From NCBI GenBank assembly GCA_037441705.1, contig JBBIRR010000002.1, positions 1 through 64,000 on the forward strand: 64,000 bases of DNA. The letters are read 5' to 3'. Source of the stretch: Ignavibacteriales bacterium. GTDB taxonomy: Bacteria; Bacteroidota; Ignavibacteria; UBA10030; UBA6906. Each line of letters begins with the position of its first letter. Position 1 is the first letter of the stretch. The position numbers and the translations under genes are program-made. Below the pieces are notes generated by a model. That model ran no database searches. It had not been told where the DNA came from and saw only the letters and a list, made by a program, of their open reading frames with translations. Of this stretch, positions 43,171-57,843 are shown one piece after another.

Positions 43171-43233
43171 TCAGATAAAAAAGTCCTTGACATTCCTCGT
43201 CGGCCGTCGTATATTTAAGACGAAATAGTCTGA
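43171..43233 (+). promoter_or_regulatory. Sigma70 promoter of the Rrf2-nos cluster flanked by two candidate Rrf2 operators
   Basis: TTGACA(43187)-N17-TATATT(43210); TCAGAT-N6-GTCCTT (43171-43188) and TAAGAC-N6-GTCTGA (43216-43233). Confidence 0.7.
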
Positions 43234-43238
43234 TTACG

Positions 43239-43721
43239 ATGAGCCTGATTTTCAGTCGCGAGTGCGAGTATGCAATCCAGAGTGTGTTGTATCTCGCGCT
43301 TAAGCGTCGGGATGAGCGGACTTCGATCCGCGAGCTGGCAGGACGCTTGAGCATCCCGTACCACTTTCTCGGGAAGATCCTGCAGCGCCTGACGCGCAAA
43401 GGTCTCCTGGTGTCGTACAAAGGGCCGTTGGGAGGATTTGCTTTGAGCATGCCCCCTGAGGAGATCACGCTCTTTCATATCGTCGAGGCTATTGACGGAA
43501 CGGCGTTCACCAGAATGTGTGTGCTCGGGTTCTCGGAGTGTACGCCGGAACGGCCCTGCTCTGTTCACGAGCACTGGTCGACGTTGCGGGACAACATCTA
43601 TCATATGCTGATCAGAAAGAACATTGCAGACATGGGTCGCGATATGAGAAAGCCCGAGTACCAGCGACTGCCGGCGGTCAAAGCAATTCTTTCCCATCCA
43701 TCACCAACACGAACCACTTGA
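43239..43721 (+). CDS. Rrf2-family Fe-S transcriptional regulator
   Basis: CEYAI, FLGKILQRL, SYKGPLGGFAL, ITLFHIVEAIDG, C-x6-C-x5-C-x2-H. Confidence 0.92.
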   Translation: MSLIFSRECEYAIQSVLYLALKRRDERTSIRELAGRLSIPYHFLGKILQRLTRKGLLVSYKGPLGGFALSMPPEEITLFHIVEAIDGTAFTRMCVLGFSECTPERPCSVHEHWSTLRDNIYHMLIRKNIADMGRDMRKPEYQRLPAVKAILSHPSPTRTT

Positions 43722-43747: not shown

Positions 43748-44326
43748 ATGAAACCAACCGAAGAACTGATCCGTGAACATGACGCCATCCAAACGATGCT
43801 GCGCATTCTGGAGAGCGCGAGCACACGTCTGCTTGCCGGTGAAACGGTAAGCGCCGACGACCTCGGCAACATGATCGAGTTCCTTCGCGTGTTTGCCGAC
43901 CGATGCCATCATGCGAAAGAAGAGACGGTACTCTTTCCTGCCATGGAGGCGGTGGGGATACCGCGCGAACGAGGACCCATTGGGGTGATGTTGTCCGAAC
44001 ATGACGCGGGCCGCAAGCATATTCGCGGGATGGCGGACGCGCTCGACAGCTATAGAAAGGGTGTCGATGGCGCCGCGCGTGAGTTTGTAACGCATGCACG
44101 TCTCTACAGCAATCTTCTCTTCCAGCACATTCAGAAAGAAAATCAGATTCTCTTTCCGATGGCCGATGCGCACATAGCGGAGACGGAACAGGAGCGCATA
44201 GCCCGGGAATTTGCGCGGCTGGAAGCTGAGCAGATCGGCGAAGGAACGCATGAACGCTTTCATGCGCTTCTCGGAGAATTGAAGCAAGCATACCTCTCGA
44301 CTGAACTATCACCCGCGAAGGCGTAG
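43748..44326 (+). CDS. Hemerythrin-like (HHE) domain protein
   Basis: LIREHD, DRCHHAKEE.VLFP, GPIGVMLSEHDAGR, HIQKENQILFPMA. Confidence 0.9.
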   Translation: MKPTEELIREHDAIQTMLRILESASTRLLAGETVSADDLGNMIEFLRVFADRCHHAKEETVLFPAMEAVGIPRERGPIGVMLSEHDAGRKHIRGMADALDSYRKGVDGAAREFVTHARLYSNLLFQHIQKENQILFPMADAHIAETEQERIAREFARLEAEQIGEGTHERFHALLGELKQAYLSTELSPAKA

Positions 44327-44328
44327 CC

Positions 44329-45114
44329 GTGCACGCTGTCGCTGACTTCTACGATGCACTTGCATCCGACTATGATCTGATGACGGGCTTCGAGCAGCGC
44401 GTGGTTACTGATCGGCCGTTCTTCCGGTTGCTTGTGGAACGTTACGGCATCAAGCGCGCGGTGGATGCCGGCTGCGGTACGGGGTTTCACAGTTTTTTGC
44501 TCACCCAGCTCGGCGTGGATGTTACGGCGGTGGATGTCTCCGAAGCAATGCTTCGGAAACTCTCTGAACGGGCTGCCGCGCTGAACGTGCAAGTTCATAT
44601 CGTACGAACGGATTTCCGATCGCTTGCTTCTGCACTTCAGCAAAAGTACGATGCAGTCTTCTGTCTCGGGAACACGTTGGCTCACCTCCAATCAGAGGAA
44701 GAACTGCGCGCAGCGTTGACAAATTTCTCCTCTGTAATTGTCCCGGGTGGCTGTTTGTTTCTGCAAGTCGTGAATTTTGAACGCATTCTCGCATCGCGGC
44801 AGCGCATCCAAAGCGTACGGGAGCGCGACGACAAAGTGTTTGTCCGCTTCTATGATTTTGAGCCGACCAAGATTCGCTTCAACATCTTGACCCTGGAACG
44901 GCATGAAGGCTCGCTCAGTCACCGCTTGCAATCCGTTTGCCTCCGTCCCATCCGTTCGAGCGAGCTTGTTGATGTAGTCCAGCGCTGTGGCTTCGAACAG
45001 CCGGCGGTGTTCGGCGGGATCTCGCTGGAGGAGTTTCTTCCCGAGCGTTCTCCCGACATCGTGCTGGTTGCCCGAAAGATGGGGAAAGGTTCCGACACTT
45101 CCACAACAGTGTGA
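44329..45114 (+). CDS. Class I SAM-dependent methyltransferase
   Basis: VDAGCGTG, VDVSEAML, YDAVFCLGNTLAHL. Confidence 0.88.
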   Translation: MHAVADFYDALASDYDLMTGFEQRVVTDRPFFRLLVERYGIKRAVDAGCGTGFHSFLLTQLGVDVTAVDVSEAMLRKLSERAAALNVQVHIVRTDFRSLASALQQKYDAVFCLGNTLAHLQSEEELRAALTNFSSVIVPGGCLFLQVVNFERILASRQRIQSVRERDDKVFVRFYDFEPTKIRFNILTLERHEGSLSHRLQSVCLRPIRSSELVDVVQRCGFEQPAVFGGISLEEFLPERSPDIVLVARKMGKGSDTSTTV

Positions 45115-45119
45115 GGATC

Positions 45120-47021
45120 ATGGCACAGTATTACAAGCCGGTTATTCCCGACATCGAATTCTGGAAGAATCTCGTCCCGTGCCAGATCGGATGCCCGATC
45201 CACACCGATGCGGGGCGATACGTCCAGCTCATTGCCGAGCAGAAGTACAAAGAGGCATACCTCACTGCGCGTTCACCCAATCCCTTTGCAAGTGTCTGCG
45301 GGCGTGTGTGTGCTGCGCCGTGTGAAGATTGGTGCCGCCGGGGGAAGATTGATACGCCGGTCAGCATTCGCGCGCTGAAGCGCTTCGTCACGGAAAAATA
45401 CGGCGTCGAGTCCGTTGTGCCCGATACCCAGGACGAGTTGTTCGAGGGCGGAAACGATCCCGGCAACAAGTGGCTCTGGCACCTGCCTGCACAAGTCGAA
45501 GCGCGCAAGAACGTCGTCAAGAACAAGAAAGTTGCCGTCATCGGGTCGGGGCCTGCGGGCCTTTCGTGCGCGCATGATCTTGCGCTGATGGGCTATCAGG
45601 TGACGGTGTTCGAGGCGACGAACGTTGCCGGCGGTATGCTGCGTCACGGGATTCCCGAGTACCGTCTCTCCCGCAGCCTGATCGATAAGGAAATTGAGAA
45701 GATCAAGTTTTTGGGCGTCGACATCCGGTACAACACGCCGCTGACGCAGTCGTTCGGTCTGAAGGAATTGAAGCGCGAGGGTTTTGAGGCGGTGTTTCTT
45801 TCCGTCGGAACACAAAAGGGCCGCGACCTCAACATCGAGGGAAACTCTCTCGATGGCATCATCAAAGCCATTGATTATCTCCTCAACGTCAACAACGGCT
45901 ATCGCGTCAATCTTGGTAAGAAGGTGTTGGTGATCGGCGGCGGTTTCGTTGCCTTCGATGCCGCCCGTATGGCATTACGCGGCGCGCCGGACGGAGAAGG
46001 CGGGGATATTCACGCGGCGGTGGACGCTGCCCGAACGGCCATTCGAGCAGGCGCGCAGGAAGTGCATATCGCCAGCCTCGAATCGTTCGCCGAAATGCCC
46101 GTGTTACGGACCGCGCAGGGACATGAAGAGTTCGAGGAAGCAAAGCGTGAAGGGATTATCTTCCATCCGCAGCGTGGCCCCCGCCGATTCATCGGCGAGC
46201 AGGGAAGGGTGAAGGCGGTGGAGTTCATCGGCGTGAAGCGGACCTACGATGACGCCGGTCGGTTCAATCCAGAATATGATCCAAGTTACTCCGAGACGTT
46301 CGAGACGGATTCGGTGATTCTCGCGATCGGGCAACAAACGGATCTGTCGTTTCTCAGGCCCGAAGACAACATCGAACTCACGCCCGGCAAGCTCATCAAG
46401 ATTGATCCCGAAACCCTTGCCACGACGGCGCCGGGCGTGTTCGCCGGCGGCGACGTTGCGTTTGGACCGCGCAATATCATCGACGCTGTAGCAAACGGCA
46501 AACGAGCGGCCCTCTCCATTGATGAGTACCTTCGAGGCATCAAGCCGGAGACGTTCTACAATCTCTTGATCGAGAAAATTCCGACACGCCGTTTCACCCG
46601 ACCAGAAGACTACGAGCAGCATGCAAGAGAGGCGCCACCCTCCATTGACCTGAACCGCCGCACAGGAATCTCCGAAGTCGAAATCGGCTACACAGATCAG
46701 CAGGCACGCACGCAGGCCGAACGGTGCCTCGCCTGCCACATTCAAACGATCTACGACGCGGACAAATGTGTGATGTGCAACCGCTGCGTGGACATCTGCC
46801 CGGAGTACTGCCTGAAGCTGGTTCCGCTTGCCGAGCTGGAGCTTGACGAGCAAACGAAGACACAACTCCTGAACCACTACAACCTCGATCCGTTCCAGCA
46901 TGCTTCGGCGATGCTCAAGGACGACGAAACGTGCATTCGGTGTGGCCTCTGTGCACTGCGTTGCCCGACCGACGCGATGACAATGGAAGTCTTTTATTAC
47001 GAACAGAAAGAAGTAGCGTGA
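45120..47021 (+). CDS. FAD/NAD(P)H oxidoreductase, GltD/NfnB/DsrL-like, with C-terminal 2x[4Fe-4S] domain
   Basis: PCQIGCP, CGRVCAAPCEDWC, VIGSGPAGL, GIPEYRL, VIGGGFVAFDAAR, FAGGD, CVMCNRCVDICP, CIRCGLCALRCP. Confidence 0.9.
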   Translation: MAQYYKPVIPDIEFWKNLVPCQIGCPIHTDAGRYVQLIAEQKYKEAYLTARSPNPFASVCGRVCAAPCEDWCRRGKIDTPVSIRALKRFVTEKYGVESVVPDTQDELFEGGNDPGNKWLWHLPAQVEARKNVVKNKKVAVIGSGPAGLSCAHDLALMGYQVTVFEATNVAGGMLRHGIPEYRLSRSLIDKEIEKIKFLGVDIRYNTPLTQSFGLKELKREGFEAVFLSVGTQKGRDLNIEGNSLDGIIKAIDYLLNVNNGYRVNLGKKVLVIGGGFVAFDAARMALRGAPDGEGGDIHAAVDAARTAIRAGAQEVHIASLESFAEMPVLRTAQGHEEFEEAKREGIIFHPQRGPRRFIGEQGRVKAVEFIGVKRTYDDAGRFNPEYDPSYSETFETDSVILAIGQQTDLSFLRPEDNIELTPGKLIKIDPETLATTAPGVFAGGDVAFGPRNIIDAVANGKRAALSIDEYLRGIKPETFYNLLIEKIPTRRFTRPEDYEQHAREAPPSIDLNRRTGISEVEIGYTDQQARTQAERCLACHIQTIYDADKCVMCNRCVDICPEYCLKLVPLAELELDEQTKTQLLNHYNLDPFQHASAMLKDDETCIRCGLCALRCPTDAMTMEVFYYEQKEVA

Positions 47022-47058
47022 TGGTATCTCATGGAAACAGAACACACGGAGTCTGTTT

Positions 47059-47607
47059 ATGAAATTCTTCAAGAAGTCGAACGGAAAAGCTGAACCGGAA
47101 GCGCGTCCGGCAGATACAGGCCGTCGGTCGTTTCTTGAAAAGCTCGGCTTTGGAAGTTTGATCGCCGGGCTGGCGGGATTTGGCCTGCAGTCGTTCCGGT
47201 CGCTTATTCCCAACGTGTTGTATGAGCCGCCGATGAAATTCAAGGTTGGTCATCCGTCAACGCTGGCAGACGGCGTGACGTTTCTGGAAGACAAGCGGCT
47301 GTATCTTTTCAAAGAAGGAAAGTCGTTCTACGCGATCTCGGCAGCGTGCACACATCTCGGCTGTACCGTCAAGTACACCAAACTCAATCAGCCGAAACAA
47401 GTTGAGATAGATGGAGAAAAGAAAACCGTCCCGTTCGAATTTCACTGCCCGTGCCACGGCTCGAAGTTCTATTCGGACGGAACGAACTACGCGGGGCCTG
47501 CACCGAAACCGTTGCACTGGTACCGACTGGAAGTCGCTCCCGATGATGGCCAGTTGGTCGTGAACATGAGCGATGAAGTGGAGAGAAGTTTCCGATTGAC
47601 CGTTTGA
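47059..47607 (+). CDS. Rieske [2Fe-2S] subunit of a Rieske/cytochrome b complex
   Basis: Tat-like GRRSFL plus TM helix; CTHLGC and CPCHGS boxes; GPAPKPL. Confidence 0.93.
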   Translation: MKFFKKSNGKAEPEARPADTGRRSFLEKLGFGSLIAGLAGFGLQSFRSLIPNVLYEPPMKFKVGHPSTLADGVTFLEDKRLYLFKEGKSFYAISAACTHLGCTVKYTKLNQPKQVEIDGEKKTVPFEFHCPCHGSKFYSDGTNYAGPAPKPLHWYRLEVAPDDGQLVVNMSDEVERSFRLTV

Positions 47608-47637
47608 TGTGCAGTTACTTAAACGAAGGAACACACA

Positions 47638-48963
47638 ATGCAAATTGCTGAAGCGACAAAGCGAGTCTCCAACAAGCTTCTCTGGCCGTGGAAACCTTCC
47701 AGCGACAAAGAAGCCGGCGACGCGATCGTTAAGAACTTGCTCCTGCACTGGTTCCCGAACAAGGTGACGAAAGGAAGCCTGTCGTGGACCTATTCCTTCT
47801 ACCTTGGAACGATCTCGTTTGTTCTGTTCGTGATTCTCTCGCTCACGGGCGTCGTGCTCATGTTTCTTTACGTGCCGTCGGTGGAGCGCGCATACAGTTC
47901 GGTAAAGGACATCGAGTACGTGGTGTCCTTTGGCTGGTTGTTGCGGGGTATGCACCGCATCGCGGCACATCTGATGGTGGCGGTGGTTTTCCTGCACATG
48001 GTGCGTGTGTTTCTGACCGGCGCCTACAAGAACGGAAGCGCCGTCGGCGCGAACAGACCGCTCAACTGGATCATCGGCCTTGTGCTGCTCCTGGCGACGC
48101 TCCTTCTGTCCTTCACCGGCTACTTGCTGCCGTGGGATCAGTTAGCGTACTGGGCAATCACCGTCGGGACGAACATTGCCAGCGCCGCTCCGATCGTTGG
48201 CGAGTGGATTCGCTTCCTCCTACTCGGCGGCAATACCATTGATCAGGGAGCGCTGATTCGCTTTTATGTGCTGCACGTGTTCTTTCTTCCTGTGCTGGTT
48301 GTGTTTCTCTTCTCGTGGCACATGTGGCGTGTGAGGAAGGACGGTGGGCTCGCCATTGTTGATCACGAAGTCCTGACGCAGAAAGCGGAGAAGGCAGCCC
48401 CGGTGAAGTCGAAAACCTATTCACTTCTCGGCATCACCAACGGTACGACGGTGCATGTACAAAACACGATGGTGGACGAGGAAAAGAACTCCGTGCCCTC
48501 GACGCCCCATCTTACGCGACGCATCGGGCTTGTGAGTGCTGCAACGCTGGTTGTCGTTGTGCTGCTCACGCTCGTCTTTCGCGCGCCGCTCGAAGCTCCG
48601 GCAAACCCGGCGGTGACACCCAATCCGGCGAAAGCGCCGTGGTACTTCCTCTGGCTTCAGGAGATCGTCACGATTACGACGGTGAAGATCGGTTCGTTCA
48701 CCATCAACGGCGCGTTGATTGGCGGCATTCTTCTGCCGGGCGTGCTGTTCGTGCTTGCCGCATGGTGGCCGTATCGCGACAGGTCGAGCGTCAACAACGT
48801 CGGCGTGTGGTTTGCTGCTGAGCGCAAGCGACAGAATATGGTGTTCCTCGCTATCTGTCTGTTCGTCATTCTCTTCACCATCATCGGGACGTATTTGCGA
48901 GGGCCGTATTGGAACTTCTACTGGCCATGGGAAACGTGGCCCGAGATGCCGGTAAAATTCTGA
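47638..48963 (+). CDS. Cytochrome b (fused b6 + subunit IV type)
   Basis: TG..L..LYVPS, GWLLRGMH...LHMVRVF, FTGYLLPWDQ..YWA, RFYVLH...WH, Qo-like APWYF. Confidence 0.93.
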   Translation: MQIAEATKRVSNKLLWPWKPSSDKEAGDAIVKNLLLHWFPNKVTKGSLSWTYSFYLGTISFVLFVILSLTGVVLMFLYVPSVERAYSSVKDIEYVVSFGWLLRGMHRIAAHLMVAVVFLHMVRVFLTGAYKNGSAVGANRPLNWIIGLVLLLATLLLSFTGYLLPWDQLAYWAITVGTNIASAAPIVGEWIRFLLLGGNTIDQGALIRFYVLHVFFLPVLVVFLFSWHMWRVRKDGGLAIVDHEVLTQKAEKAAPVKSKTYSLLGITNGTTVHVQNTMVDEEKNSVPSTPHLTRRIGLVSAATLVVVVLLTLVFRAPLEAPANPAVTPNPAKAPWYFLWLQEIVTITTVKIGSFTINGALIGGILLPGVLFVLAAWWPYRDRSSVNNVGVWFAAERKRQNMVFLAICLFVILFTIIGTYLRGPYWNFYWPWETWPEMPVKF

Positions 48964-48983
48964 GAGGAGGAATGATGGAAGCG

Positions 48984-49546
48984 TTAGTGGACAACGAGTT
49001 GCTTCCTGGGGCCGTCGAGTGTGAACTTCAACCGATTGAGAATATCCAGACCGAGGTAGGCTGTGTCAGTCTCCGGGGCAACGCCTTCGATGTTTTCGAA
49101 GATCCACCCGTTGAGCTTGAGGTGAACAACATGGGCTTTGTAAAGCATTGTACGACCATCATCATCTGCGACGAGGACCTCGCTGAAAGCTCTCGTGCCC
49201 AGGTGTGGGATAAGAGTGCCGGAACGATCGACATATCGGCGCCAGTATCCACTCTGAATTTCACGCGGCGCTTGCGCCCGTGTATTGGAGAAATGATGTC
49301 GATAGGAAGAATTGGAGCCGGGCGGGTCGTGCGGGAGTAACCGTATTCTCGAAACATGCGATTCAGCAGTCCCGAACGGGTAGCGTCAACGCCGATTACC
49401 TGCTCGTTGTGGATCGCAATGTATTTGTCCCTGTACTTCCGTAGGAACTCTGCCTTATGCTGATGATAGTACCGACGGTTCCGTTCGGCAAGACGTTGAG
49501 CAGCTCGGTCCTGCATGCGGCGATTCCGTTTCGTTGTGGTCGGCAT
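48984..49546 (-). pseudogene. Frameshifted DUF5678-like + retropepsin-type aspartyl protease gene, antisense in the nos operon
   Basis: KYRDKYIAIHNEQVIG; VDTGAD; after a 1-nt shift near 49215 the frame continues ...AYLGLDILNRLKFTLDGPRKQLVVH* (TAA at 48984). Confidence 0.72.
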
Positions 49547-49610
49547 TGGTTCCTCGTCCTGTCCGCTTGAGAAAAACTATGTAATCTGAATCCAACTTGC
49601 AAGGATAGCC

Positions 49611-50840
49611 ATGGATCACAAATCAGTCAACGACAAACTCACGTTCGTGAAGCAGGACAGACTGCTGCTCAGCCTCGTGGGCATCGCCGTGTTTGTGCTG
49701 ATGGGCTTCGTCACCTACAACTACCTTACGCCGGCATGGCAAGATTATCAGGCGGAGTTCCGGGATTTGGTGGAGGAAAAGTTCGGGCCTGATCGTGCAG
49801 CGACTGTGCCGCGAGGGTTGCAGCAAGTGTATGTGAAGGAGTTGAACAGGATTGATCGCTGCGTCACCTGCCATCAGGGCGTGGAGTGGAAAGGGTTGGA
49901 GAATGCCCCTGAGCCGTTTCGCACTCATCGCAAAGAAATTCTGGAAAAGCATCCCATTGAAAAATTTGGATGCACGACGTGTCACGGCGGCCAGGGGTAT
50001 GCAACGGAGAGGCGTGATGCACACGGGTTGATCAAGGATTGGGAGGAGCCGCTGTTAGGTCGGGAGTTGGGGGAGTTTTATGTTATGAGCAACAAAAAGG
50101 CCCTCATGCAGATGAACTGCAACACCTGCCATCGGTACGACAAGTACACGAAAGGCGCGGAGTATATCAATCGCGCGAAGGAGTTGGTAACGCAGAAGGG
50201 ATGCCGCGCCTGCCATGTTATCAACGGACGTGGCGGCACGGTTGGGCCGGACCTGACATACGAAGGAATGAAGGCGCCCGAACAATTCAATTACGAGCGC
50301 ATCAAAGGCTTCCTTTCGGAATTCAGCTGGCAGGTGGCCCATCTGAAAAACCCGAAGGAACTTGTCCCGGAAACCGTCATGCCCAACTTCAATTTCTCCA
50401 GCGCGGATGCGCAGGCGCTCGCGATGTTGGTCATGAGCTGGAAGAAGGAACACATCCCCGTCGAGTACATCCCCGGCCACAACTTCCGGGACATCCCAAC
50501 GCCGGAGGAGAAGGAGAAAGAAGAACGGATGCTGAAGGGGCCGGGAGCCTTCTTCGTGAAAAAGAATTGCTTCGTGTGCCATTCCGTTTCGACTCTGGGC
50601 ATTGATGCCGCTGCGCAGATTGGCCCGGACCTCGCGCTCGCCGTCGAGGATGTGCAGTCGCGCTTCGGTCGTACACTCGACGATTTCCTGGCGAAGCCCA
50701 CGGGGACGATGGAGGTGGTCCTCTCGACGATGATTACCCTCACCCCCGAAGAACGCGCGGAAGCGATCAGCAAACTGCGGCATGCCTATGAGTTGTATCA
50801 GACACAGAAGAAAGAGCAACAGGTGGCCAAAGGGAAGTGA
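49611..50840 (+). CDS. Membrane-anchored pentaheme c-type cytochrome
   Basis: N-terminal TM helix; CVTCH, CTTCH, CNTCH, CRACH, CFVCH; GPDL and MPNF motifs. Confidence 0.9.
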   Translation: MDHKSVNDKLTFVKQDRLLLSLVGIAVFVLMGFVTYNYLTPAWQDYQAEFRDLVEEKFGPDRAATVPRGLQQVYVKELNRIDRCVTCHQGVEWKGLENAPEPFRTHRKEILEKHPIEKFGCTTCHGGQGYATERRDAHGLIKDWEEPLLGRELGEFYVMSNKKALMQMNCNTCHRYDKYTKGAEYINRAKELVTQKGCRACHVINGRGGTVGPDLTYEGMKAPEQFNYERIKGFLSEFSWQVAHLKNPKELVPETVMPNFNFSSADAQALAMLVMSWKKEHIPVEYIPGHNFRDIPTPEEKEKEERMLKGPGAFFVKKNCFVCHSVSTLGIDAAAQIGPDLALAVEDVQSRFGRTLDDFLAKPTGTMEVVLSTMITLTPEERAEAISKLRHAYELYQTQKKEQQVAKGK

Positions 50841-50928
50841 CATTCATAGATCACTATAACACCTACAATAAACCCCGGAGACACACAGACCGGGATCAAC
50901 CAACATAACACAGAAGGAGTCAACAACA

Positions 50929-52827
50929 ATGAAACGCACAGCTCTGGCGCTCGGAGTCGTTGCCGTGATCGCGGCAATGCTCATCGGATGCGGCGAAGAG
51001 AAGAAAGGCCGGGGGAACGGCGCTCGGTCGGATGTGCAGGAGGCCGCATTGAAGACCTACGTGGCGCCCGGCGATTTGGACAAGTACTATCTGTTCAAGT
51101 CGGGCGGGCACTCGGGTCAGGTGTATATTTATGGCGTCCCGTCTATGCGCCATATTGCGACCATTCCGGTTTTCACCCCGTACCCCGCGACGGGATATGG
51201 TTTCGATAAGGAGTCGAAGGAGATGTTGGGCGGCTACACGTGGGGCGACGCGCACCATCCGTCGCTGAGCGAAACCGACGGCAACTACGACGGCCGCTGG
51301 TTGTTCATCTCCGACAATGCCAACAACCGCATGGCACGCATTGACCTGCGCGAGTTCAAGACCAAGCAAATTCTTGGTCCTATCCCGAACGTGTCGGGCA
51401 ACCACTGCTCGTCCTTCGTGACGGAAAATACCGAGTACGTGCTTGCAGGTTCACGCTTCTCGATCCCTCTGCCGAAAGGAACGTATGCGAGCATACAGGA
51501 CTATGCGACGAAGTACAAGGGCGTCGTTGCCGGGATCGCTGTTGATCCGAAAACGGGCACGATGTCCTTAGGGTGGCAGGTGTTGATGCCGCCGTTCAAT
51601 TACGACCTGGGCGATGCCGGAAAGGGTCCCAGCAAGGAGTGGGGATTCTGGACATGCTACAACAGCGAGCGCGCCACGGGCAAGTTGGAAGTGACGTCGG
51701 CGCAGAAAGATCGTGACTATGTTGCCGCAGTCAATTGGGTTGCTGCCGAACGCGCCATCAAGGAAGGGAAGTTCAAGATGATCGGCGGCGTGAAGGTGAT
51801 TGATCCGAAAGATGTCGAGGGAGTCGTCTACCTTCTTCCTGCAGCCAAATCCCCGCACGGTGTTGATGTCAGTCCCGATGGCAAGTACATCGTTGCCAGC
51901 GGCAAGCTGCAGAGCATCACGACCGTCTTCAACATCGAGAAGATGTTGACGGCGATCCAGAAGAAAGACTTCGAGGGCAATGAAGACGGCATCCCGGTGC
52001 TCCGTTACGATGCCGTCAAAGATGCTGAAGTGAACGTCGGTCTCGGGCCGCTGCATACGCAGTTCGACGACAAGGGGAACGCGTACACCTCGTTGTTTGT
52101 CGAGAGTGCCGTTGCCAAGTGGAAGCTCGGCACATGGGAAGTGGTGGACAAGGTTCCCGTTTCCTACAATATCGGCCACCTGACGGCCTCCGAAGGCGAC
52201 ACGAAGAACCCCACGGGCGAGTATCTGGTTGCTCTCAACAAACTTTCGCACGGGCGTCATCTCAGCGTCGGGCCGTCGCAGCCGGAATCGTCGCAACTGA
52301 TTGACATCAGCGGTGAGAAGATGAACCTGCTGTACGATGCGTTCACCGAACCCGAACCTCACTACGCGCAGATGATCAAAGCCGACAAGCTGAAGCCGAT
52401 TGAAGTGTATCCCAAAGAAGAGAACAAGCATCCCAAAGCCATCTGGGATGTGAAGGACGCGAAGGTCACGCGCAGCGGAAAGAATGTCGAAGTGCTGATG
52501 GTCGCAGTCCGTTCAACACTTGAACCGACCGCGATCGAGGTGAACAAAGGCGACAAGGTGACCATCTATCTTACCAACATCGAACAGACAACGGACGAGC
52601 TGCACGGCTTCGGTCTCAACGAGTACAACATCAATGTCGTCGTTGACCCGGGCGAGACGAAGACGATCGAGTTCGTTGCCGACAAGGCTGGTGTGTTCCC
52701 GTACTATTGCACGAACTTCTGCTCGGCGCTGCATCAAGAAATGCAGGGCTATCTGTTGGTCAAGGGAGGTTCCGGTGTTGCATCAGCGAGCAAAACGCAA
52801 CATGGAAAGGCGTTAGCCAGAAACTGA
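50929..52827 (+). CDS. nosZ: Clade II (Sec-dependent) nitrous oxide reductase, lipoprotein-type signal, no C-terminal cytochrome c domain
   Basis: SGGHSGQ, DAHH, GNH, KSPHG, GPLH, IGH, EPH (CuZ ligands); HGF..CTNFCSALHQEM (CuA); signal LIGC, no twin-Arg. Confidence 0.97.
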   Translation: MKRTALALGVVAVIAAMLIGCGEEKKGRGNGARSDVQEAALKTYVAPGDLDKYYLFKSGGHSGQVYIYGVPSMRHIATIPVFTPYPATGYGFDKESKEMLGGYTWGDAHHPSLSETDGNYDGRWLFISDNANNRMARIDLREFKTKQILGPIPNVSGNHCSSFVTENTEYVLAGSRFSIPLPKGTYASIQDYATKYKGVVAGIAVDPKTGTMSLGWQVLMPPFNYDLGDAGKGPSKEWGFWTCYNSERATGKLEVTSAQKDRDYVAAVNWVAAERAIKEGKFKMIGGVKVIDPKDVEGVVYLLPAAKSPHGVDVSPDGKYIVASGKLQSITTVFNIEKMLTAIQKKDFEGNEDGIPVLRYDAVKDAEVNVGLGPLHTQFDDKGNAYTSLFVESAVAKWKLGTWEVVDKVPVSYNIGHLTASEGDTKNPTGEYLVALNKLSHGRHLSVGPSQPESSQLIDISGEKMNLLYDAFTEPEPHYAQMIKADKLKPIEVYPKEENKHPKAIWDVKDAKVTRSGKNVEVLMVAVRSTLEPTAIEVNKGDKVTIYLTNIEQTTDELHGFGLNEYNINVVVDPGETKTIEFVADKAGVFPYYCTNFCSALHQEMQGYLLVKGGSGVASASKTQHGKALARN

Positions 52828-52869
52828 CGTCGTGCGTGTTACCCTGTGTTTGTTGAATCATACCCTCAC

Positions 52870-52899
52870 CCGAATCCCTCCGGCAGCGGAGGGATTCGG
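52870..52899 (+). terminator. GC-rich stem-loop after nosZ (attenuator or mRNA-stabilising stem)
   Basis: CCGAATCCCTCCG-GCAG-CGGAGGGATTCGG, 13-bp perfect stem, no U-tract. Confidence 0.6.
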
Positions 52900-52926
52900 T
52901 GCGGGCGGTGAAAGGAAGGAAGCGTA

Positions 52927-53565
52927 ATGCAAAATCTCATAACGAAAGCAACGGCGTTCTTCGATACGCCGATTGATTTGCGCAGCCGCGTGCTGGTGCT
53001 GGTGGGTGCGTTGATTCTGTTGCCGACATTCTTCTACCCGCTCTGGACCATGACGCTCTACTCCAATCAGTTTCCGGACGGATTGGTGCTGAAGATTTAT
53101 TCGCACAAGCTGGAAGGCGGCAAGACGCCAAACCGCGATGACCTGAAAGAAATCAACGCGCTCAACCACTACATCGGCATGAAGCCGCTGAAGGAGGAAG
53201 ACTTCACCGAGTTCAAGTGGATTCCGTTCGTGATTGGGGGCGTGATGCTTCTCGCGCTGCGCGTGGTGGTGATGGGAAAGATGTCGTACCTGGTGGATCT
53301 GTTCGTCCTCTTCACGTACTTTGGACTGTTTTCGCTCTGGAGTTTCTATCACAAGCTGTACCTGTACGGCCACGACCTTGACCCGACTGCGGCGGTACGA
53401 GTGCCGCCCTTCACGCCTCCGATGTTCGGCCATTCCACGATGGCAAACTTCGAAGTGTACAGCTTTCCAGCGGCCGGTTCTTACTGTATGGCTTTGATGC
53501 CGTTGTTCCTGCTTGCTGCGATGTGGCTGTCGCGTCAGACGTGGCTGAAACAGAAGCGTTATTGA
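52927..53565 (+). CDS. nosB: Clade II nos membrane protein NosB
   Basis: PLW..L...QFPDGL, INALNHYIGMK, YGHDLDPTA, PPMFG...ANF; directly after nosZ. Confidence 0.85.
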   Translation: MQNLITKATAFFDTPIDLRSRVLVLVGALILLPTFFYPLWTMTLYSNQFPDGLVLKIYSHKLEGGKTPNRDDLKEINALNHYIGMKPLKEEDFTEFKWIPFVIGGVMLLALRVVVMGKMSYLVDLFVLFTYFGLFSLWSFYHKLYLYGHDLDPTAAVRVPPFTPPMFGHSTMANFEVYSFPAAGSYCMALMPLFLLAAMWLSRQTWLKQKRY

Positions 53566-53590
53566 ACAAGTCCTGCGTAATGTGGTGGTG

Positions 53591-54394
53591 ATGAGCATGA
53601 AACCGATCATACCTAAAGAGCATGGCGGTTGGGCTGTATTGTATGTGCCGATGCTTGTCGGTGCGGCAATTGCCGGCGAGGTAACGCTCGACGTGTTGTT
53701 GCTTGCCCTGTCCGGGTTGGGGATGTTTTTGAGCTACGCGCCCGTGCACATGATTCTCCGGCACCGGTATGTGCTGCCGCTTCCGAAGGATAAACTCAAG
53801 CAGGCGGTGCTCTGGAGTATTGTGTATCTGGGTTTCGGCATTGCGTTCATGGTTCCGCTGCTTCTGCGCGGGTACTGGCTCCTTCCCGTCATCGGCATTC
53901 CCGGGCTTGGAGCATTTTTCGGCAACTTCTTACTGACGCGGCGCGTGTCGAAAACCATTCCGAGCGACCTCGTTGCGGTGTTTGGTCTCTCGCTCGGTGC
54001 AGTATGTTCCCACTACGTCGTGACGGGTCGCATCACCGAGGAAGCGGTTATCGTCTGGTTGCTGAACCTGCTCTTCTTCTGGTGCAGCGTGTTCTACGTT
54101 CACATGAAGATTCGTGCGGCCTCCCACAAGGAGCCGGTCATTGCAATGTCGGAGCGCCTGTCGCTGGGGTCGCTGAACATTCTCTATCACATTGTGGTGG
54201 TAGCAATTGTCGTGGGATTGGCATTCTATCGCATGACGAGGTTGTACGTTGTGCTTGCGTTTGTGCCCATGCTGCTGCACGCACTGTATGGAACGTACAA
54301 GCTCTCACACAGGGTGAAATTTCAGCGGCTGGGACTTCTGCTGTTAGCGCAGTCTGTGCTGTTCGGTCTTGTGCTCTGGAGGGTGTGGGAATGA
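53591..54394 (+). CDS. YwiC-like membrane protein
   Basis: IPKEHGGWAVL N-terminal motif; multiple TM helices. Confidence 0.75.
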   Translation: MSMKPIIPKEHGGWAVLYVPMLVGAAIAGEVTLDVLLLALSGLGMFLSYAPVHMILRHRYVLPLPKDKLKQAVLWSIVYLGFGIAFMVPLLLRGYWLLPVIGIPGLGAFFGNFLLTRRVSKTIPSDLVAVFGLSLGAVCSHYVVTGRITEEAVIVWLLNLLFFWCSVFYVHMKIRAASHKEPVIAMSERLSLGSLNILYHIVVVAIVVGLAFYRMTRLYVVLAFVPMLLHALYGTYKLSHRVKFQRLGLLLLAQSVLFGLVLWRVWE

Positions 54395-55788
54395 ACGCAA
54401 AGACAACACTCTTGCTTGTCGTGTTTTGGTGCGGAATCGGTTCTCATGCCAGTCCGGCCTCTGAGAAGACCGGAGGGCGCGTCGAACCATCTGCATCTCT
54501 GCAAACGGCGGTTGATGCAGCGGCGCCGGGCGACACGCTGGTGATACAGCCGGGGACGTATGAGGGCAACATCATTCTGCGCAAGCGCCTGGTGCTGATC
54601 GGAACGCAGGCTCCAATTCTTCGAGGCGAGGGGAAAGGGAGCGTCGTTACGATCGAGGCCGACTCCTGCGTCGTGCGTGGATTCGTGGTGGAACGCTCAG
54701 GCTCCATGTTGGTGAATGAAGATGCTGGCATTCTCATCAAATCTTCTCATAATCTGATTGAGAGGAATTCGCTCCGCGATGTGTTGTTTGGCGTCTATCT
54801 GCTTCACGCTCACCACAACACTATTCGAGATAATGACATTGCCGGCAGGCGTCAACTTGATGTCGGCCAGCGCGGCGCCGGAATCCACGTCTGGAATTCT
54901 CTGCACAATCGGTTTGTCGGAAATGTCGTTACGGACACGCGGGACGGCTTCTACATCCAGAACGCCAACCACTCCCGCATCGAGCGCAACCGATGCTACA
55001 ACGTGCGCTACGGGCTGCACTACATGTATGCCGACTCGAATGTGTTCCTGCACAACACGTTCCACGATAATGTTGCCGGCGCGGCGATCATGTACTCCCG
55101 CGGCATTGTCATGCGCCACAACGTCTTCTCGCACAACCGGGGTTTCTCGTCGTTCGGCATTCTCTTTCAGGATTGTCATGATCTGATTGCTGACTCGAAC
55201 GTCATTACCGACAACGTCGTTGGGATGTTCTTTGAAGCATCAACGGACAACGTGTTCCGTCACAACGTGATTGCTCAGAACGATCTCGCGCTGCAGATGT
55301 TCCAGAACTCGATCAACAACATCTTCAGCGAGAATGTTCTTGTCGATAATCTCAGTCCGCTCGCCATTGTCGGGAAGCGAACCGAATCCCGCTGGAGCGT
55401 TGACGGCCGCGGCAACTACTGGAGTTCGTACGACGGGTACGATCTCGATGGCGACGGCATCGGCGATGTGCCGATGAGAATTCAGAATGTGTTTCATTAC
55501 CTCGAAGGGCAGAACGCCAACGTGCGTCTGTATTTGTACAGTCCCGCCTCGCAGGCCCTTGCTGCAGCGGCAAAAGCATTCCCCATCCTCATGATCAATG
55601 AAGAGGCGGACGAGCATCCGTTGATGCAGCCGTTTGACGCAGGAGCGCTTCCGGCCGTTCAGATGCTGCGCGCGATGCATTCGTCGAGGGACAGCGGAGA
55701 GCTCAGCAAGGGGTGGGTGGCATGGCCGCTCATGGGCCTGCTGGTCCTGGGGTTTCTCTATCATCGCATTGGAAGGAGATCCGCATGA
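54391..55788 (+). CDS. nosD: Nitrous oxide reductase maturation protein NosD
   Basis: LQTAVDAAAPGDTL, beta-helix repeats, RDGFY, RYGLHYMY, GNYWSSYDGYDLDGDGIGDVP; ATGA overlap with upstream gene. Confidence 0.95.
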   Translation: MNAKTTLLLVVFWCGIGSHASPASEKTGGRVEPSASLQTAVDAAAPGDTLVIQPGTYEGNIILRKRLVLIGTQAPILRGEGKGSVVTIEADSCVVRGFVVERSGSMLVNEDAGILIKSSHNLIERNSLRDVLFGVYLLHAHHNTIRDNDIAGRRQLDVGQRGAGIHVWNSLHNRFVGNVVTDTRDGFYIQNANHSRIERNRCYNVRYGLHYMYADSNVFLHNTFHDNVAGAAIMYSRGIVMRHNVFSHNRGFSSFGILFQDCHDLIADSNVITDNVVGMFFEASTDNVFRHNVIAQNDLALQMFQNSINNIFSENVLVDNLSPLAIVGKRTESRWSVDGRGNYWSSYDGYDLDGDGIGDVPMRIQNVFHYLEGQNANVRLYLYSPASQALAAAAKAFPILMINEEADEHPLMQPFDAGALPAVQMLRAMHSSRDSGELSKGWVAWPLMGLLVLGFLYHRIGRRSA

Positions 55789-56507
55789 TACAGGTGGAAC
55801 ATCTTATCAAGAAGTTTGGCAAATTCACGGCCGTGAATGACGTTTCATTCATCGTCAAGGAAGGAGAGGTGTTTGCCTTTTTGGGCCCGAACGGAAGCGG
55901 CAAGACGACGACGATGAAATCTCTCGTGGGGCTGAACGTGCCGACTTCAGGACGGATATTGATCAACAATGTCGATGTGCAGCGCTATCCGAAACAGACG
56001 AGGCAGTTCATGAGCTACCTTCCGCAGCGCGTGGTGTTTCCGGAGAACCAATCGGCGCGGGAGGTGATGCGCTTCTACTGTCGGTTACGCAAGCTGCCGC
56101 TCGCGCGGGCCGATGAGGCCCTCGAGCGTGCGGGCTTCAACGGCTTCGCCGACAAACCCGTCAGCGAGTTTTCGGGCGGGATGATTCAGCGTCTCGGTCT
56201 CGCCGTCGTCGCCCTGCCCGATGCGCCGATCCTGCTGCTCGACGAGCCGACCGCCAACCTCGACCCGCAAGGCGTGAAGCGCTTCCGGGAATTCATTCTT
56301 CACCAAAAAGAAAACGGCAAGACCATCATCTTCTCGACCCATCTGCTGCAAGAAGCCGAGCAGCTCGCCGACCGTGTCGGGATCTTTGTCGGCGGAAGAA
56401 TGGTCGCGGAAGAATCCATTGAGACCCTTCACAGGACGTATCTCGCAAGCAGAACAATGGAAGACATGTATTTACACTACGTGGGAGAACACACCGATGA
56501 ACGCTAA
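55785..56507 (+). CDS. nosF: ABC ATPase NosF
   Basis: GPNGSGKTT, FSGGMIQR, LLDEPTANLD, STH; between nosD and nosL. Confidence 0.88.
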   Translation: MIQVEHLIKKFGKFTAVNDVSFIVKEGEVFAFLGPNGSGKTTTMKSLVGLNVPTSGRILINNVDVQRYPKQTRQFMSYLPQRVVFPENQSAREVMRFYCRLRKLPLARADEALERAGFNGFADKPVSEFSGGMIQRLGLAVVALPDAPILLLDEPTANLDPQGVKRFREFILHQKENGKTIIFSTHLLQEAEQLADRVGIFVGGRMVAEESIETLHRTYLASRTMEDMYLHYVGEHTDER

Positions 56508-56952
56508 CACTGTATCACGCCGTCCTCACCTTCTCGGGCCGACACTCCTCGCCTTTATGCTTCTCGGATGCGGCGCGTCGAAGATCGAACCGGTTGAAAT
56601 TTTCCCCGAGGATAATTGTGCCCAATGCCGCATGGCGGTGTCGGAGGTGCAGTTCGCATCGGAGATCATTGACATGCACGGGGAGGTGTACAAGTTCGAC
56701 GACCTTGGATGCATGCTGAAGTTCCGGAACAAGCGCAGCGATCTCAAGATCAACGCGACATTCTTGAAAGACTATGAGACAAAGGAATGGATTCCGTACG
56801 AGCGGGCTGTGATCGTAAAGACAAGCATCGAGACACCCATGGGTTCCGGCAAGGTGGCCTTCGCCGACCAAGCACGAGCAAAAGCTATCCAAAGCCGTCA
56901 CCCGGCTTCCGAGCAACATGCCGATGGGTGTTCGCACGCATGCTGTCAGTAA
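56497..56952 (+). CDS. nosL: Copper chaperone lipoprotein NosL
   Basis: LLGC lipobox, CAQCRM, KFDDLGCM, TPMGSG. Confidence 0.9.
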   Translation: MNANTVSRRPHLLGPTLLAFMLLGCGASKIEPVEIFPEDNCAQCRMAVSEVQFASEIIDMHGEVYKFDDLGCMLKFRNKRSDLKINATFLKDYETKEWIPYERAVIVKTSIETPMGSGKVAFADQARAKAIQSRHPASEQHADGCSHACCQ

Positions 56953-57012
56953 CGTTCGGCGACGCCTCGCTGCAGTATTTACTCGACAATTAAGGTTGGA
57001 AGGAGTTGAACT

Positions 57013-57843
57013 GTGGACTTCAAAGCGATCTTCGACATAGCACGACAGGAGCTGGTCATCAACATCCGCAACAAATGGACGATGATCTTTGCGGTGGTGT
57101 TTGGCGTGTTGGTCGTGAGCATCTCGTACTTTGGCATCATGGCCGAGGGCTTTTCCGGGATGCAAAACTTCACCCGAACCTCGGCGAGCTTGCTGAATCT
57201 GGTGTTGTACATCGTGCCGCTGGTTGCGCTTACCATGGGGACTCTGAGCTTTACCGGCGACAAAGGATCCACGGAACTTCTGTTTTCTCAGCCTCTGTTC
57301 CGCAGTGAGATTCTTCTTGGAAAACTTGTCGGCGTGTTCTTCTCCATTGCGCTTTCGACGCTTATCGGCTTCACGCTGGCGGGAGGTGTGGTGATTGCCG
57401 CCAACGGCGGGGAAGGCCTCTCGCGCTATGTGGCGTTCGTGGTTCTGTCGCTGGCACTCTCGTTCGTCTTTCTGAGCATTGCCGTCCTGTCCTCCACACT
57501 CAGCCGACGGAAGTCCAAAGCCTTCGGCCTTGCGTTGTTTCTCTGGTTCTTTTTTGTCCTTTTCTACGATCTGCTTGCGCTGGGCGGCGTGCTGATGTTG
57601 AAGGGGAAGGCGGCGAACACGTTCCTCTTTCTCTCTCTCTTCGGCAATCCGGTGGATATGGTACGAGTGGCAACGCTGATCATTCTGGACAACGTAACAA
57701 TTTTTGGTGCCGCAGGCGCGGCGATGCTGAGATTCCTCGGCGGTCAGACGGCGAGCCTGCTTCTCTTAGTGGTCGGACTCGCTGTTTGGGGAAGCATCCC
57801 GCTTCTGATCGCCGTGCGGTTGATGCGGCGACAGGATATTTGA
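57013..57843 (+). CDS. nosY: ABC permease NosY
   Basis: IARQEL..IRNKW, SLLNLVLYIVPL, ELLFSQP..RSEILLGK, GNPVD..R. Confidence 0.9.
   Translation: MDFKAIFDIARQELVINIRNKWTMIFAVVFGVLVVSISYFGIMAEGFSGMQNFTRTSASLLNLVLYIVPLVALTMGTLSFTGDKGSTELLFSQPLFRSEILLGKLVGVFFSIALSTLIGFTLAGGVVIAANGGEGLSRYVAFVVLSLALSFVFLSIAVLSSTLSRRKSKAFGLALFLWFFFVLFYDLLALGGVLMLKGKAANTFLFLSLFGNPVDMVRVATLIILDNVTIFGAAGAAMLRFLGGQTASLLLLVVGLAVWGSIPLLIAVRLMRRQDI

Follow-up and report, generated by a model that had tools for sequence, protein, structure and literature searches.

A putative anammox-type, NAD(H)-linked Rieske/cytochrome b complex encoded ahead of clade II nosZ in an Ignavibacteriales genome

Introduction

To our knowledge, the reductase NosZ is the only biological sink for nitrous oxide (N2O), and we know of no settled electron route to clade II NosZ outside the Campylobacterota. 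Here, a nos cluster of an Ignavibacteriales bacterium (assembly GCA_037441705.1) was analysed that begins with a gene for a flavoprotein of the FAD/iron–sulfur (Fe-S) type, followed by genes for a Rieske protein, a cytochrome b and a pentaheme cytochrome c ahead of nosZ. The cluster lies in a stretch of 64,000 nucleotides of contig JBBIRR010000002.1, read on the forward strand and hereafter called the window, whose genes were called from a listing of open reading frames (ORFs) together with Pfam and NCBIfam family scans. The classic example of such a clade II nos cluster is that of Anaeromyxobacter.

For the cluster of Wolinella, the passages available, which cite Hein et al. (2017), describe a Sec-type NosZ with nosB directly downstream, nosD, nosF, nosY and nosL, menaquinol as the ultimate electron source with involvement of a Rieske/cytochrome bc complex, and NosG, NosH, NosC1 and NosC2 as further components. 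PMC11096178 (legend to Figure 5) depicts clade II nos clusters that contain Fe-S, Rieske, cytochrome b and cytochrome c genes; for clusters of the Anaeromyxobacter type, the portions of that paper at hand label the first gene just an iron-sulfur protein and name neither its FAD/NAD(H) nature nor its anammox kinship.

Related complexes have been described from anammox bacteria. According to the excerpts of PMC12954380, the Rieske proteins Kuste4569 (structure 9rk4) and Kustd1480 (9rk3) belong to two Kuenenia complexes with a putative NAD(P) oxidoreductase, and the proposal that quinol oxidation is coupled to NAD(P)+ reduction is already in print there. Anammox complexes holding both flavoprotein and cytochrome b were detected by de Almeida et al. 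(2016), as cited in PMC5600118. In the available passages of the latter paper (Dibrova et al., 2017), cytochromes b of subfamily G are reported to co-occur with large Cys-rich NAD(P)-binding Fe-S oxidoreductases, and clade G′ is described as comprising long cytochromes b whose genes lie in large, conserved operons without an assigned function. The same passages cite Zhang et al. (2001) for the proposal that ferredoxin:NADP+ reductase bound to cytochrome b6f feeds electrons into the quinone-reducing side.

The results showed that the window's cluster resembles the Wolinella cluster in its nos genes and differs from it in the genes that would supply electrons. As in other clade II clusters, nosB lies right after nosZ, nosD, nosF, nosY and nosL are present, and nosR is absent; nosB is defined by its position directly downstream of nosZ in the parts of PMC11409646 and PMC11096178 consulted, and its orthologue is found immediately 3′ of nosZ in related loci too. 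In contrast to Wolinella, the window's operon itself encodes a Rieske/cytochrome b complex and a flavoprotein. Pfam scans of the window's ORFs returned no NapG/NapH-like, NosC, NosR, ApbE-like or cytochrome-domain gene, so that no module of the Wolinella type (NapG/NapH-like proteins plus a mono- or diheme NosC in the cluster) was found in the window, and the NosZ sequence contains no CXXCH and hence no cytochrome c domain. An earlier note on this DNA, made from its letters alone, had given the gene order from the flavoprotein to NosY, the absence of nosG/nosH, nosC1/C2 and nosR from the cluster, and a NosZ without a cytochrome c domain; the ORF listing and the family scans bore out all three, with every listed gene present on the + strand (45111–57843) in the order claimed.

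The description of subfamily G/G′ also fits the window locus, a comparison made by description only and with passages that do not mention nos, and it may be that Fig. S1 of Dibrova et al. (2017) includes these cytochromes b already. The cytochrome b6f complex with its ferredoxin:NADP+ reductase (Zhang et al., 2001, as cited in PMC5600118) is similar in that a b6-type complex has, on its electronegative side, a flavoenzyme linked to NAD(P); it differs in that this flavoenzyme is of an unrelated family, in that an Fe-S chain is lacking and in its heme cn, which the complex of the window would lack. The earlier note had gone too far in calling the system undescribed, given that, in the parts of the papers at hand, the gene order is drawn in PMC11096178, the pairing of cytochrome b genes with NAD(P) Fe-S genes is discussed in PMC5600118 and the anammox proposal is printed in PMC12954380. 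In a literature search that is provisional, most subscription journals and supplements lying outside its scope, neither the first gene of a nos cluster as a homologue of the anammox subunit of NAD(H) type nor a discussion of nos clusters that carry an NAD(P)-linked flavoprotein, or of its meaning for N2O respiration, was found; a nos-linked flavoprotein also goes unmentioned in the genome papers on Ignavibacterium and Melioribacter.

Conservation of the gene string

On balance, we judge it probable that the window encodes a dedicated four-subunit Rieske/cytochrome b complex that would supply electrons to the clade II N2O-reductase operon and be wired to NAD(H), a reading built on gene order and sequence comparison. 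Relatives of the flavoprotein were collected at one genome per species; the search gave 241, the best 80 of which (58–92% identity) were kept, and the counts of following genes refer only to loci with enough downstream DNA. Because this sample was picked by flavoprotein similarity, it shows that the orthologue accompanies Rieske/cytochrome b and nos genes, not that nos needs the flavoprotein, and the relatedness of the loci inflates its numbers. The results showed that a Rieske gene lies downstream of the flavoprotein gene in 74 of 75 loci and a cytochrome b gene in 68 of 68, that the pentaheme cytochrome c gene follows cytochrome b in all except one of 59 loci (58/59), and that nosZ follows the pentaheme gene in 48/48. 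The gap between flavoprotein and Rieske genes has a median of 21 bases, and the two genes overlap in 29 of 75 loci (start-codon calls are approximate). Flavoprotein identity follows cytochrome b identity (rho 0.95, n = 72), a value inflated by the kinship of the loci. The records of the 80 loci are labelled as Bacteroidota, Ignavibacteria, Chlorobi, Acidobacteriota (including Blastocatellia, Pyrinomonadaceae, Vicinamibacteria, Thermoanaerobaculia and Terriglobales), Anaeromyxobacter and KSB1. Thus, the synteny of flavoprotein, Rieske, cytochrome b, multiheme and nosZ genes, for which the earlier note had suggested a survey, is conserved and tightly packed across several phyla, in all of which the flavoprotein gene is firmly associated with those for Rieske and cytochrome b.

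Two Anaeromyxobacter loci (L078 and L079) have the order flavoprotein, Rieske, cytochrome b, pentaheme, nosZ, nosB, nosD, nosF and nosL, with nosY in addition in L079, and their flavoproteins are 59% identical to that of the window. At a KSB1-labelled locus (L068, 6675–16685), an 83%-identical flavoprotein, a Rieske protein and a cytochrome b are followed by a cytochrome c/EB_dh protein and a 1156-aa molybdopterin oxidoreductase, the genes of which replace the pentaheme gene and nosZ.

The flavoprotein also has paralogues beside other terminal enzymes. Paralogous flavoproteins (45–50% identity by tblastn, with the same Cys pattern) were found in five of 301 genomes sampled evenly from the window's phylum and at ten loci of a second scan. 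Where enough DNA was present, they are followed by genes for a Rieske protein, a short cytochrome b6, subunit IV and a multiheme cytochrome c (4/4 and 10/10 loci, respectively), and six paralogue loci reaching further contain DsbD-like, diheme cytochrome c and ccoN-like oxidase genes, five of them with FixG as well. The ccoN-like gene scores 374 bits against the ccoN model, whose cut-off is 583. In L087/L092, L089, L096 and L098–L101, this oxidase-linked cluster consists of flavoprotein (in places preceded by Rrf2), Rieske, b6, subunit IV and a pentaheme cytochrome c with a FixO-like part, then the oxidase genes; its hosts are Ignavibacteria, Bacteroidota and one Gemmatimonadales genome. These results show that flavoprotein, Rieske and cytochrome b form a portable unit placed before different terminal enzymes. 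Since this unit stands before NosZ, a cbb3-like oxidase and a molybdoenzyme, the flavoprotein would work with the Rieske/cytochrome b proteins rather than with a Nos protein, and we regard its working with the complex of the window as likely.

In some of the related loci an additional gene was observed. A secreted DUF6448 protein of about 200 aa (3.8e-59), absent from the window's cluster, is encoded between the pentaheme gene and nosZ in L003, L004, L023, L025 and L070, and between the Rieske and cytochrome b genes in L037, L041, L048 and L053. Its mature N-terminus begins His-Cys-Asp, and it may be a metal-binding accessory protein.

Distribution in the phylum and in the genome

A Sec-type nosZ was present in 103 of the 301 genomes of the phylum sample, and a flavoprotein orthologue in 12, with at least 69% identity in 11 and as an 81% fragment in one (G009). 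All 12 orthologue-bearing genomes have nosZ, on the same contig in 11, and two genomes of the sample have a flavoprotein paralogue only and no nosZ. The remaining 91 of the 103 nosZ genomes have no flavoprotein. At the ten nosZ loci fetched from these 91 genomes, Rieske, cytochrome b and pentaheme genes were absent within about 9 kb in every case, so that the four genes of this sample are either present as a complete set or all missing, and most clade II NosZ systems of the phylum, as sampled, use another electron route.

In the G009 genome, which is of the same genus, only the final third of the flavoprotein gene and, about 2 kb away, the second half of nosZ were found, on contig C52 (17982–21311); the cluster may be decayed or misassembled.

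The window's own genome contains four Rieske/cytochrome b loci in total, and the three others (C29:44800–52600, C34:29400–33100 and C17:62700–64300) have no flavoprotein gene. One of them lies beside genes for an octaheme cytochrome c and COX1, one after an NrfD-like gene and before multihemes, and one alone. These further loci and a NapH-like gene elsewhere in the genome, together with the 91 flavoprotein-less nosZ genomes and the ten nosZ loci just described, fit the view that the Rieske/cytochrome b proteins of the window are the cell's general complex III, encoded merely beside nos, and that NosZ is fed by another route. Such a view conflicts with nosZ following the pentaheme gene in every locus with enough DNA, with the presence of nosZ in each orthologue-bearing genome of the phylum sample and with the finding that another Rieske/cytochrome b locus of the genome adjoins heme-copper oxidase genes, and is considered highly improbable.

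The earlier note had asked whether nosGH elsewhere could carry the flux. One NapH-like gene does exist, on contig C23; with 85 bits it scores below the cut-off of 213, and it lies away from the nos cluster, beside an Rrf2 paralogue and TonB-receptor genes, with no NapG partner identified. NosGH elsewhere as the carrier of the flux was rejected on these genomic grounds. A 3-kb contig of the same genome (C84:237–2615) encodes a 792-aa protein with a pyridine-nucleotide oxidoreductase domain, a NapH-type Fer4_5 domain and dicluster domains.

Relation to the anammox complexes

Five anammox genomes, found via a published 16S probe, were searched with the window's proteins. The results showed that a Kuenenia-labelled genome has two corresponding gene strings, one with Rieske, flavoprotein (581 aa), b6, subunit IV, hexaheme and octaheme genes and one with Rieske, b6, flavoprotein (567 aa), subunit IV and octaheme genes; the four-family gene set was also found across Kuenenia-, Scalindua- and Brocadiia-labelled genomes. 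The window's flavoprotein is 34–35% identical to the Kuenenia homologues over residues 8–634 (E 1e-92 to 3e-110), its cytochrome b 48–49% over residues 30–239, its Rieske protein 34–38% and its multiheme cytochrome c about 30% at one of the two loci. The kinship with anammox NAD(P)-oxidoreductase complexes mentioned in the earlier note was thus found to extend to all four subunits, and the same four subunit families are encoded together in Kuenenia (Kuste4569–4574 and Kustd1480–1485) as in the window. Among 38 solved relatives, 9rk4 (1e-20) and 9rk3 (2.4e-19) were the best for the Rieske protein, the next reaching 9.1e-13.

The Fe-S Cys pattern and the proposed extra-heme residues are common to both systems. 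An alignment of seven flavoprotein sequences showed C24, C28, C67, C71, C75, the segment R538-C539-L540-x-C542, C553, C556, C559, C563, C608, C611, C614 and C618 to be invariant. The AlphaFold3 models in the excerpts of PMC12954380 contain an additional heme b that lies between the flavoprotein and the two monomers of cytochrome b. His43/Arg247 of Kuste4571 and His62/Arg266/Lys267 of Kustd1481 map to His37, Arg233 and Lys234 of the window's cytochrome b, and Arg511 of Kuste4570 maps to Arg558 of the window's flavoprotein. Across the nos-linked family, these residues vary little or not at all; the heme site is known from modelling, not from a solved structure.

The cytochrome b of the window has seven hydrophobic spans and the heme-ligand pairs His106/120 and His213/228. 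The residues His37, Arg233 and Lys234 are conserved, the motif LH[WIL][FH]P occurring in 66 of 68 orthologues and W[RK]xRKDGG in 67 of 68; with 248.7 bits the protein scores below the cut-off (290) of the ExtP model. In contrast to the anammox proteins, it is fused with subunit IV, and a search for the CxGG motif of heme cn found none: YLGT stands where the anammox sequences have CMGG, and for this reason the window's cytochrome b should lack heme cn. The Rieske boxes CTHLGC and CPCHGS are present in 74/74 orthologues, and box II has Ser in all 74, followed by Tyr in 42 and Phe in 32. The two corresponding Kuenenia Rieske proteins, Kuste4569 (Ser/Tyr) and Kustd1480 (Ser/Phe), have measured potentials of +303 mV and +335 mV, respectively, according to the sections of PMC12954380 at hand. 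The pentaheme cytochrome c is presumed to be the link from Rieske to NosZ.

Further differences from the anammox complexes were found. The sink is NosZ in the window, whereas it is an octaheme protein of the HAO (hydroxylamine oxidoreductase) type in anammox bacteria; an insertion of about 20 residues, which repeats the first helix of the nucleotide-binding fold, is present in nos- and oxidase-linked flavoproteins and absent from those of anammox bacteria; and the anammox hosts are autotrophs, whereas hosts of the window type are heterotrophic N2O reducers. Taken together, the comparison identifies the predicted system of the window as a flavoprotein-bearing Rieske/cytochrome b complex of anammox type, with an NAD(H)-type pocket, no heme cn and NosZ as its sink.

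The flavoprotein and its nucleotide pocket

The flavoprotein consists of Fer4_20 (residues 23–96, 2.5e-18), Pyr_redox_2 (139–463, 3.4e-28) and Fer4/Fer4_7 (552–623) domains. In the nos-linked family, 17 Cys are invariant (24, 28, 63, 67, 71, 75, 539, 542, 553, 556, 559, 563, 567, 608, 611, 614 and 618), a number that would suffice for four Fe-S clusters, this being a count, not a structure. No curated equivalog was reached in the family scans, the best NCBIfam model being NF009410 with 420.6 bits against a cut-off of 516. True GltD was tried and rejected (TIGR01317, 208 against 447.7; TIGR01318, 191 against 483), also with respect to its partner, the neighbouring genes being those of Rieske and cytochrome b with no gltB. 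Matches in the protein atlas were generic clusters of FAD-dependent oxidoreductases, mostly from Acidobacteriota and Pseudomonadota.

By sequence, the best solved relatives were NfnA 9n5u (3.7e-81) and 9bov (1.1e-78). The predicted fold has a mean pLDDT (predicted local distance difference test) of 73.7 and a pTM (predicted template modelling score) of 0.72, with low confidence at residues 292–312, 494–524 and 545–563; Foldseek gave NfnABC 9bov_A as its top match (4.2e-37), then 9n5u and StnABC 8oh5. NfnABC is thus the top structural relative of this flavoprotein (9bov) and, with entry 9bp5, of Kuste4570 in the excerpts of PMC12954380.

These relatives bear on a reading in which the flavoprotein is detached from the complex, being a soluble cytoplasmic NADH-dependent Fe-S enzyme that is co-expressed with respiratory modules, for example a ferredoxin/NAD(H) oxidoreductase or an enzyme of redox balancing, repair or sensing that acts with the Rrf2 and hemerythrin genes upstream. 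The protein sequence contains neither a signal peptide nor a hydrophobic or membrane span, the closest solved relatives are subunits of the soluble NfnABC, StnABC and NfnI, and one related locus (L024) has no Rieske gene after the flavoprotein gene, all of which would fit such an enzyme. The rrf2, hemerythrin and methyltransferase genes lie upstream of the flavoprotein gene in many Ignavibacteria-type loci; however, they are missing from the Acidobacteriota and Anaeromyxobacter loci, where the Rieske/cytochrome b genes are retained. That adjacency also holds where paralogous modules stand beside other terminal enzymes and in the anammox genomes, the flavoprotein gene sometimes lies between those for cytochrome b6 and subunit IV, and the anammox complexes detected by de Almeida et al. 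(2016) contain both proteins, as cited in the passages of PMC5600118. A detached enzyme is consequently regarded as quite improbable, and the working of the flavoprotein with the Rieske/cytochrome b complex is retained; it would sit on the cytoplasmic face of cytochrome b. A structure prediction for two cytochrome b chains (residues 8–441) with the flavoprotein tail (505–636) gave 0.02 and 0.09 against a mark of 0.32, with 33-row alignments, the tail only and no hemes, values that weigh on neither side of the question of binding.

The residues S322-L323-E324 replace the Y-R-R of NfnA after the second Rossmann strand. This substitution, noted earlier from the window alone, proved to be real and general: S-L-E was found in 78/78 complete nos-linked flavoprotein ORFs and C-L-E in the single oxidase-linked paralogue aligned, whereas three of the four anammox homologues aligned, those of Kuenenia and Scalindua type, keep Y-R-R. 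An acidic residue at that Rossmann position favours NAD(H) over NADP(H). The S-L-E motif thus points to a nucleotide pocket of the NAD(H) type.

Proposed mechanism and direction of electron flow

In the proposed mechanism, menaquinol would be oxidised at the Qo (quinol-oxidising) site, and one electron would pass via the Rieske protein and the pentaheme cytochrome c to the CuA site of NosZ in the periplasm. The b-heme chain would be wired via the His37/Arg233/Lys234 face of cytochrome b to the ferredoxin tail of the flavoprotein and from there via the N-terminal clusters and FAD to the NAD(H) pool. In the forward direction, NADH would donate into the low-potential side of b heme and Qi; the complex would then serve as an in-built NADH dehydrogenase, and the unit as a whole would form an NADH-to-N2O chain with a Q-loop. 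This direction is favoured because the carriers are heterotrophs, the pocket is switched from NADP(H)-type to NAD(H)-type and the step is strongly downhill; NADH as the donor is put forward tentatively, with a chance that we place somewhat short of even.

Electrons might instead flow in reverse, as in the bifurcation proposed for anammox bacteria: of the two electrons of the Qo quinol, one would go to Rieske, pentaheme and NosZ and the other via the b hemes and Fe-S clusters to NAD+, and the NADH would re-enter via complex I. Both the set of subunits and the residues proposed for the interface agree with those of the Kuenenia complexes, for which this mechanism was put forward (as given in the excerpts of PMC12954380), yet the mechanism is, according to the same source, undemonstrated in anammox bacteria as well. 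The host lineages considered here are menaquinone organisms. A high-potential branch would be consistent with the Ser/Tyr or Ser/Phe of Rieske box II, shared with Kuste4569 (+303 mV) and Kustd1480 (+335 mV), complex I with NuoF is available to close the loop, and all sinks found beside the module (NosZ, cbb3-like oxidase and molybdoenzyme) are periplasmic or oxidase-type terminal enzymes. By our estimate, however, the reaction would be near thermoneutral against the full membrane potential, with about 0.37 V per electron gained in the high branch and about 0.25 V plus the membrane crossing spent in the low branch. Heterotrophic carriers have no obvious need to make NADH from quinol, and a pocket of the NAD(H) type (S-L-E), in place of the NADP(H)-type Y-R-R found in the autotrophic anammox bacteria, would suit catabolic NADH. 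Reverse flow of this kind is therefore thought unlikely, if worth keeping in view.

Several findings weigh against an NADH-linked complex dedicated to NosZ. The physical evidence for binding of the flavoprotein to cytochrome b is an analogy only, namely the Kuenenia complexome data cited in the passages of PMC5600118. The heme cn motif CxGG of the anammox proteins is missing from the cytochrome b, and the path of electrons on the cytoplasmic side may thus be a different one. The oxidase-linked cytochrome b on C29 carries the His37 motif and has no flavoprotein gene nearby, which makes the motif a trait of the family and no indicator that a flavoprotein binds. At locus L024, the flavoprotein gene is followed by an amylase-type gene and not by a Rieske gene. 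The genome has complex I with NuoF, and a second entry point for NADH is thus not obviously needed. In the window, an opposite-strand ORF parts the cytochrome b and pentaheme genes, so that co-transcription of the two halves of the operon is not assured here.

A direct link of N2O respiration to the NAD(H) pool, if real, would set it apart from the textbook route from quinol to cytochrome c, both in energy yield and in how N2O consumption is controlled by redox state. Flavoprotein-bearing Rieske/cytochrome b complexes, so far discussed for anammox bacteria, form a broader family, with members linked to N2O reductase, cbb3-like oxidases and, at one locus, a molybdoenzyme, and the proposed quinol/NAD(P) coupling becomes testable since some carriers can be grown. 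It is also conceivable, but in our view rather unlikely, that the complex is a quinol-driven, N2O-pulled NAD+ reductase, in which the pull of the high-potential branch would drive the other electron of the quinol through the membrane to NAD+, the NADH being re-oxidised by complex I. By our arithmetic, about twice as many protons would be moved per electron between menaquinol and the terminal enzyme in such a 'super Q-cycle'. Higher growth yields have been reported for some clade II N2O reducers, and quinol-driven NAD+ reduction, if true, would give a mechanistic reason for them; culturable hosts such as Anaeromyxobacter would then allow the long-debated anammox mechanism to be tested.

Gene layout and neighbouring features

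The genes of the cluster and those preceding it are listed in Table 1. The operon probably starts upstream of the flavoprotein gene, at the Rrf2 gene (43239), and the Rrf2 protein is probably both its first gene product and its regulator. The top promoter-like site (43187–43215, 11/12 matches) lies directly before rrf2, in a scan whose site counts were near the level of shuffled sequence. For the hemerythrin-domain protein, the NCBIfam RIC models score far under their cut-offs. The NosZ sequence contains the CuA motif, and the Tat (twin-arginine translocation)-type model gave 493.6 bits, under its cut-off of 625. The YwiC-like gene is found between nosB and nosD only in some Ignavibacteria-type loci.

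Table 1. Predicted genes of the nos-linked cluster and of the region before it (window positions)
Feature	Coordinates	Strand	Basis and remarks
Rrf2-family regulator, three clustered Cys (NsrR/IscR-like)	43239..43721	+	PF02082 2.8e-28; TIGR00738 102 bits, above cut-off
Hemerythrin-domain protein (RIC/YtfE-like, weak match)	43748..44326	+	PF01814 4.9e-24; start chosen at ATG 43748
S-adenosylmethionine (SAM)-dependent methyltransferase	44329..45114	+	PF13649 5.1e-19; stop overlaps flavoprotein start
FAD/Fe-S flavoprotein, GltD/NfnA-like core with C-terminal 2x[4Fe-4S] ferredoxin domain, 636 aa	45111..47021	+	
Rieske [2Fe-2S] subunit	47059..47607	+	PF00355 7.6e-11; CTHLGC and CPCHGS boxes; twin-arginine N-terminus GRRSFLEKL
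Cytochrome b, b6 and subunit IV fused	47638..48963	+	PF00033 7.4e-43; PF00032 at residues 321-418
Opposite-strand ORF, 172 aa, outside the system	49028..49546	-	DUF5678 9.8e-5, below cut-off; DTGA-like motif
Pentaheme cytochrome c	49611..50840	+	Exactly five CXXCH; N-terminal membrane anchor (hydrophobic span)
NosZ, clade II, Sec-dependent lipoprotein	50929..52827	+	TIGR04246 918.3 bits, cut-off 625; lipobox LIGC
NosB-type membrane protein	52927..53565	+	No family match; called by position, conservation and hydrophobic spans
YwiC-like membrane protein	53582..54394	+	PF14256 1.5e-15
NosD	54388..55788	+	TIGR04247 409 bits, cut-off 300; start chosen at MNAKTT
NosF (ABC ATPase)	55785..56507	+	PF00005 9.6e-31; start chosen at MIQVEH
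NosL lipoprotein	56497..56952	+	PF05573 1.5e-9; start MNANTV; lipobox LLGC
NosY (ABC-2 permease)	57013..57843	+	PF12679 1.7e-22

The gap between the cytochrome b and pentaheme genes is 650 bases in the window, where it contains the opposite-strand ORF, and 28 bases in the closest relative (L001), where the ORF is absent; the ORF may be a recent insertion splitting the operon.

After nosY, an FGE-sulfatase/SUMF1-like gene is broken into two overlapping frames (57860–58477 and 58362–58991), perhaps by a frameshift or through an error in sequencing. In L002, L005, L038 and L056, too, nosY is followed by a homologue of the first part of this gene. Domains like FGE-sulfatase/SUMF1 accompany copper nitrite reductase as NirV. 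Elsewhere in the window, a 1088-aa ORF with no Pfam match (27462–30725) lies within a stretch of unusual composition, with a GC content of 0.62, a GC skew of 0.22 and an AT skew of 0.52 at 28001–30000.

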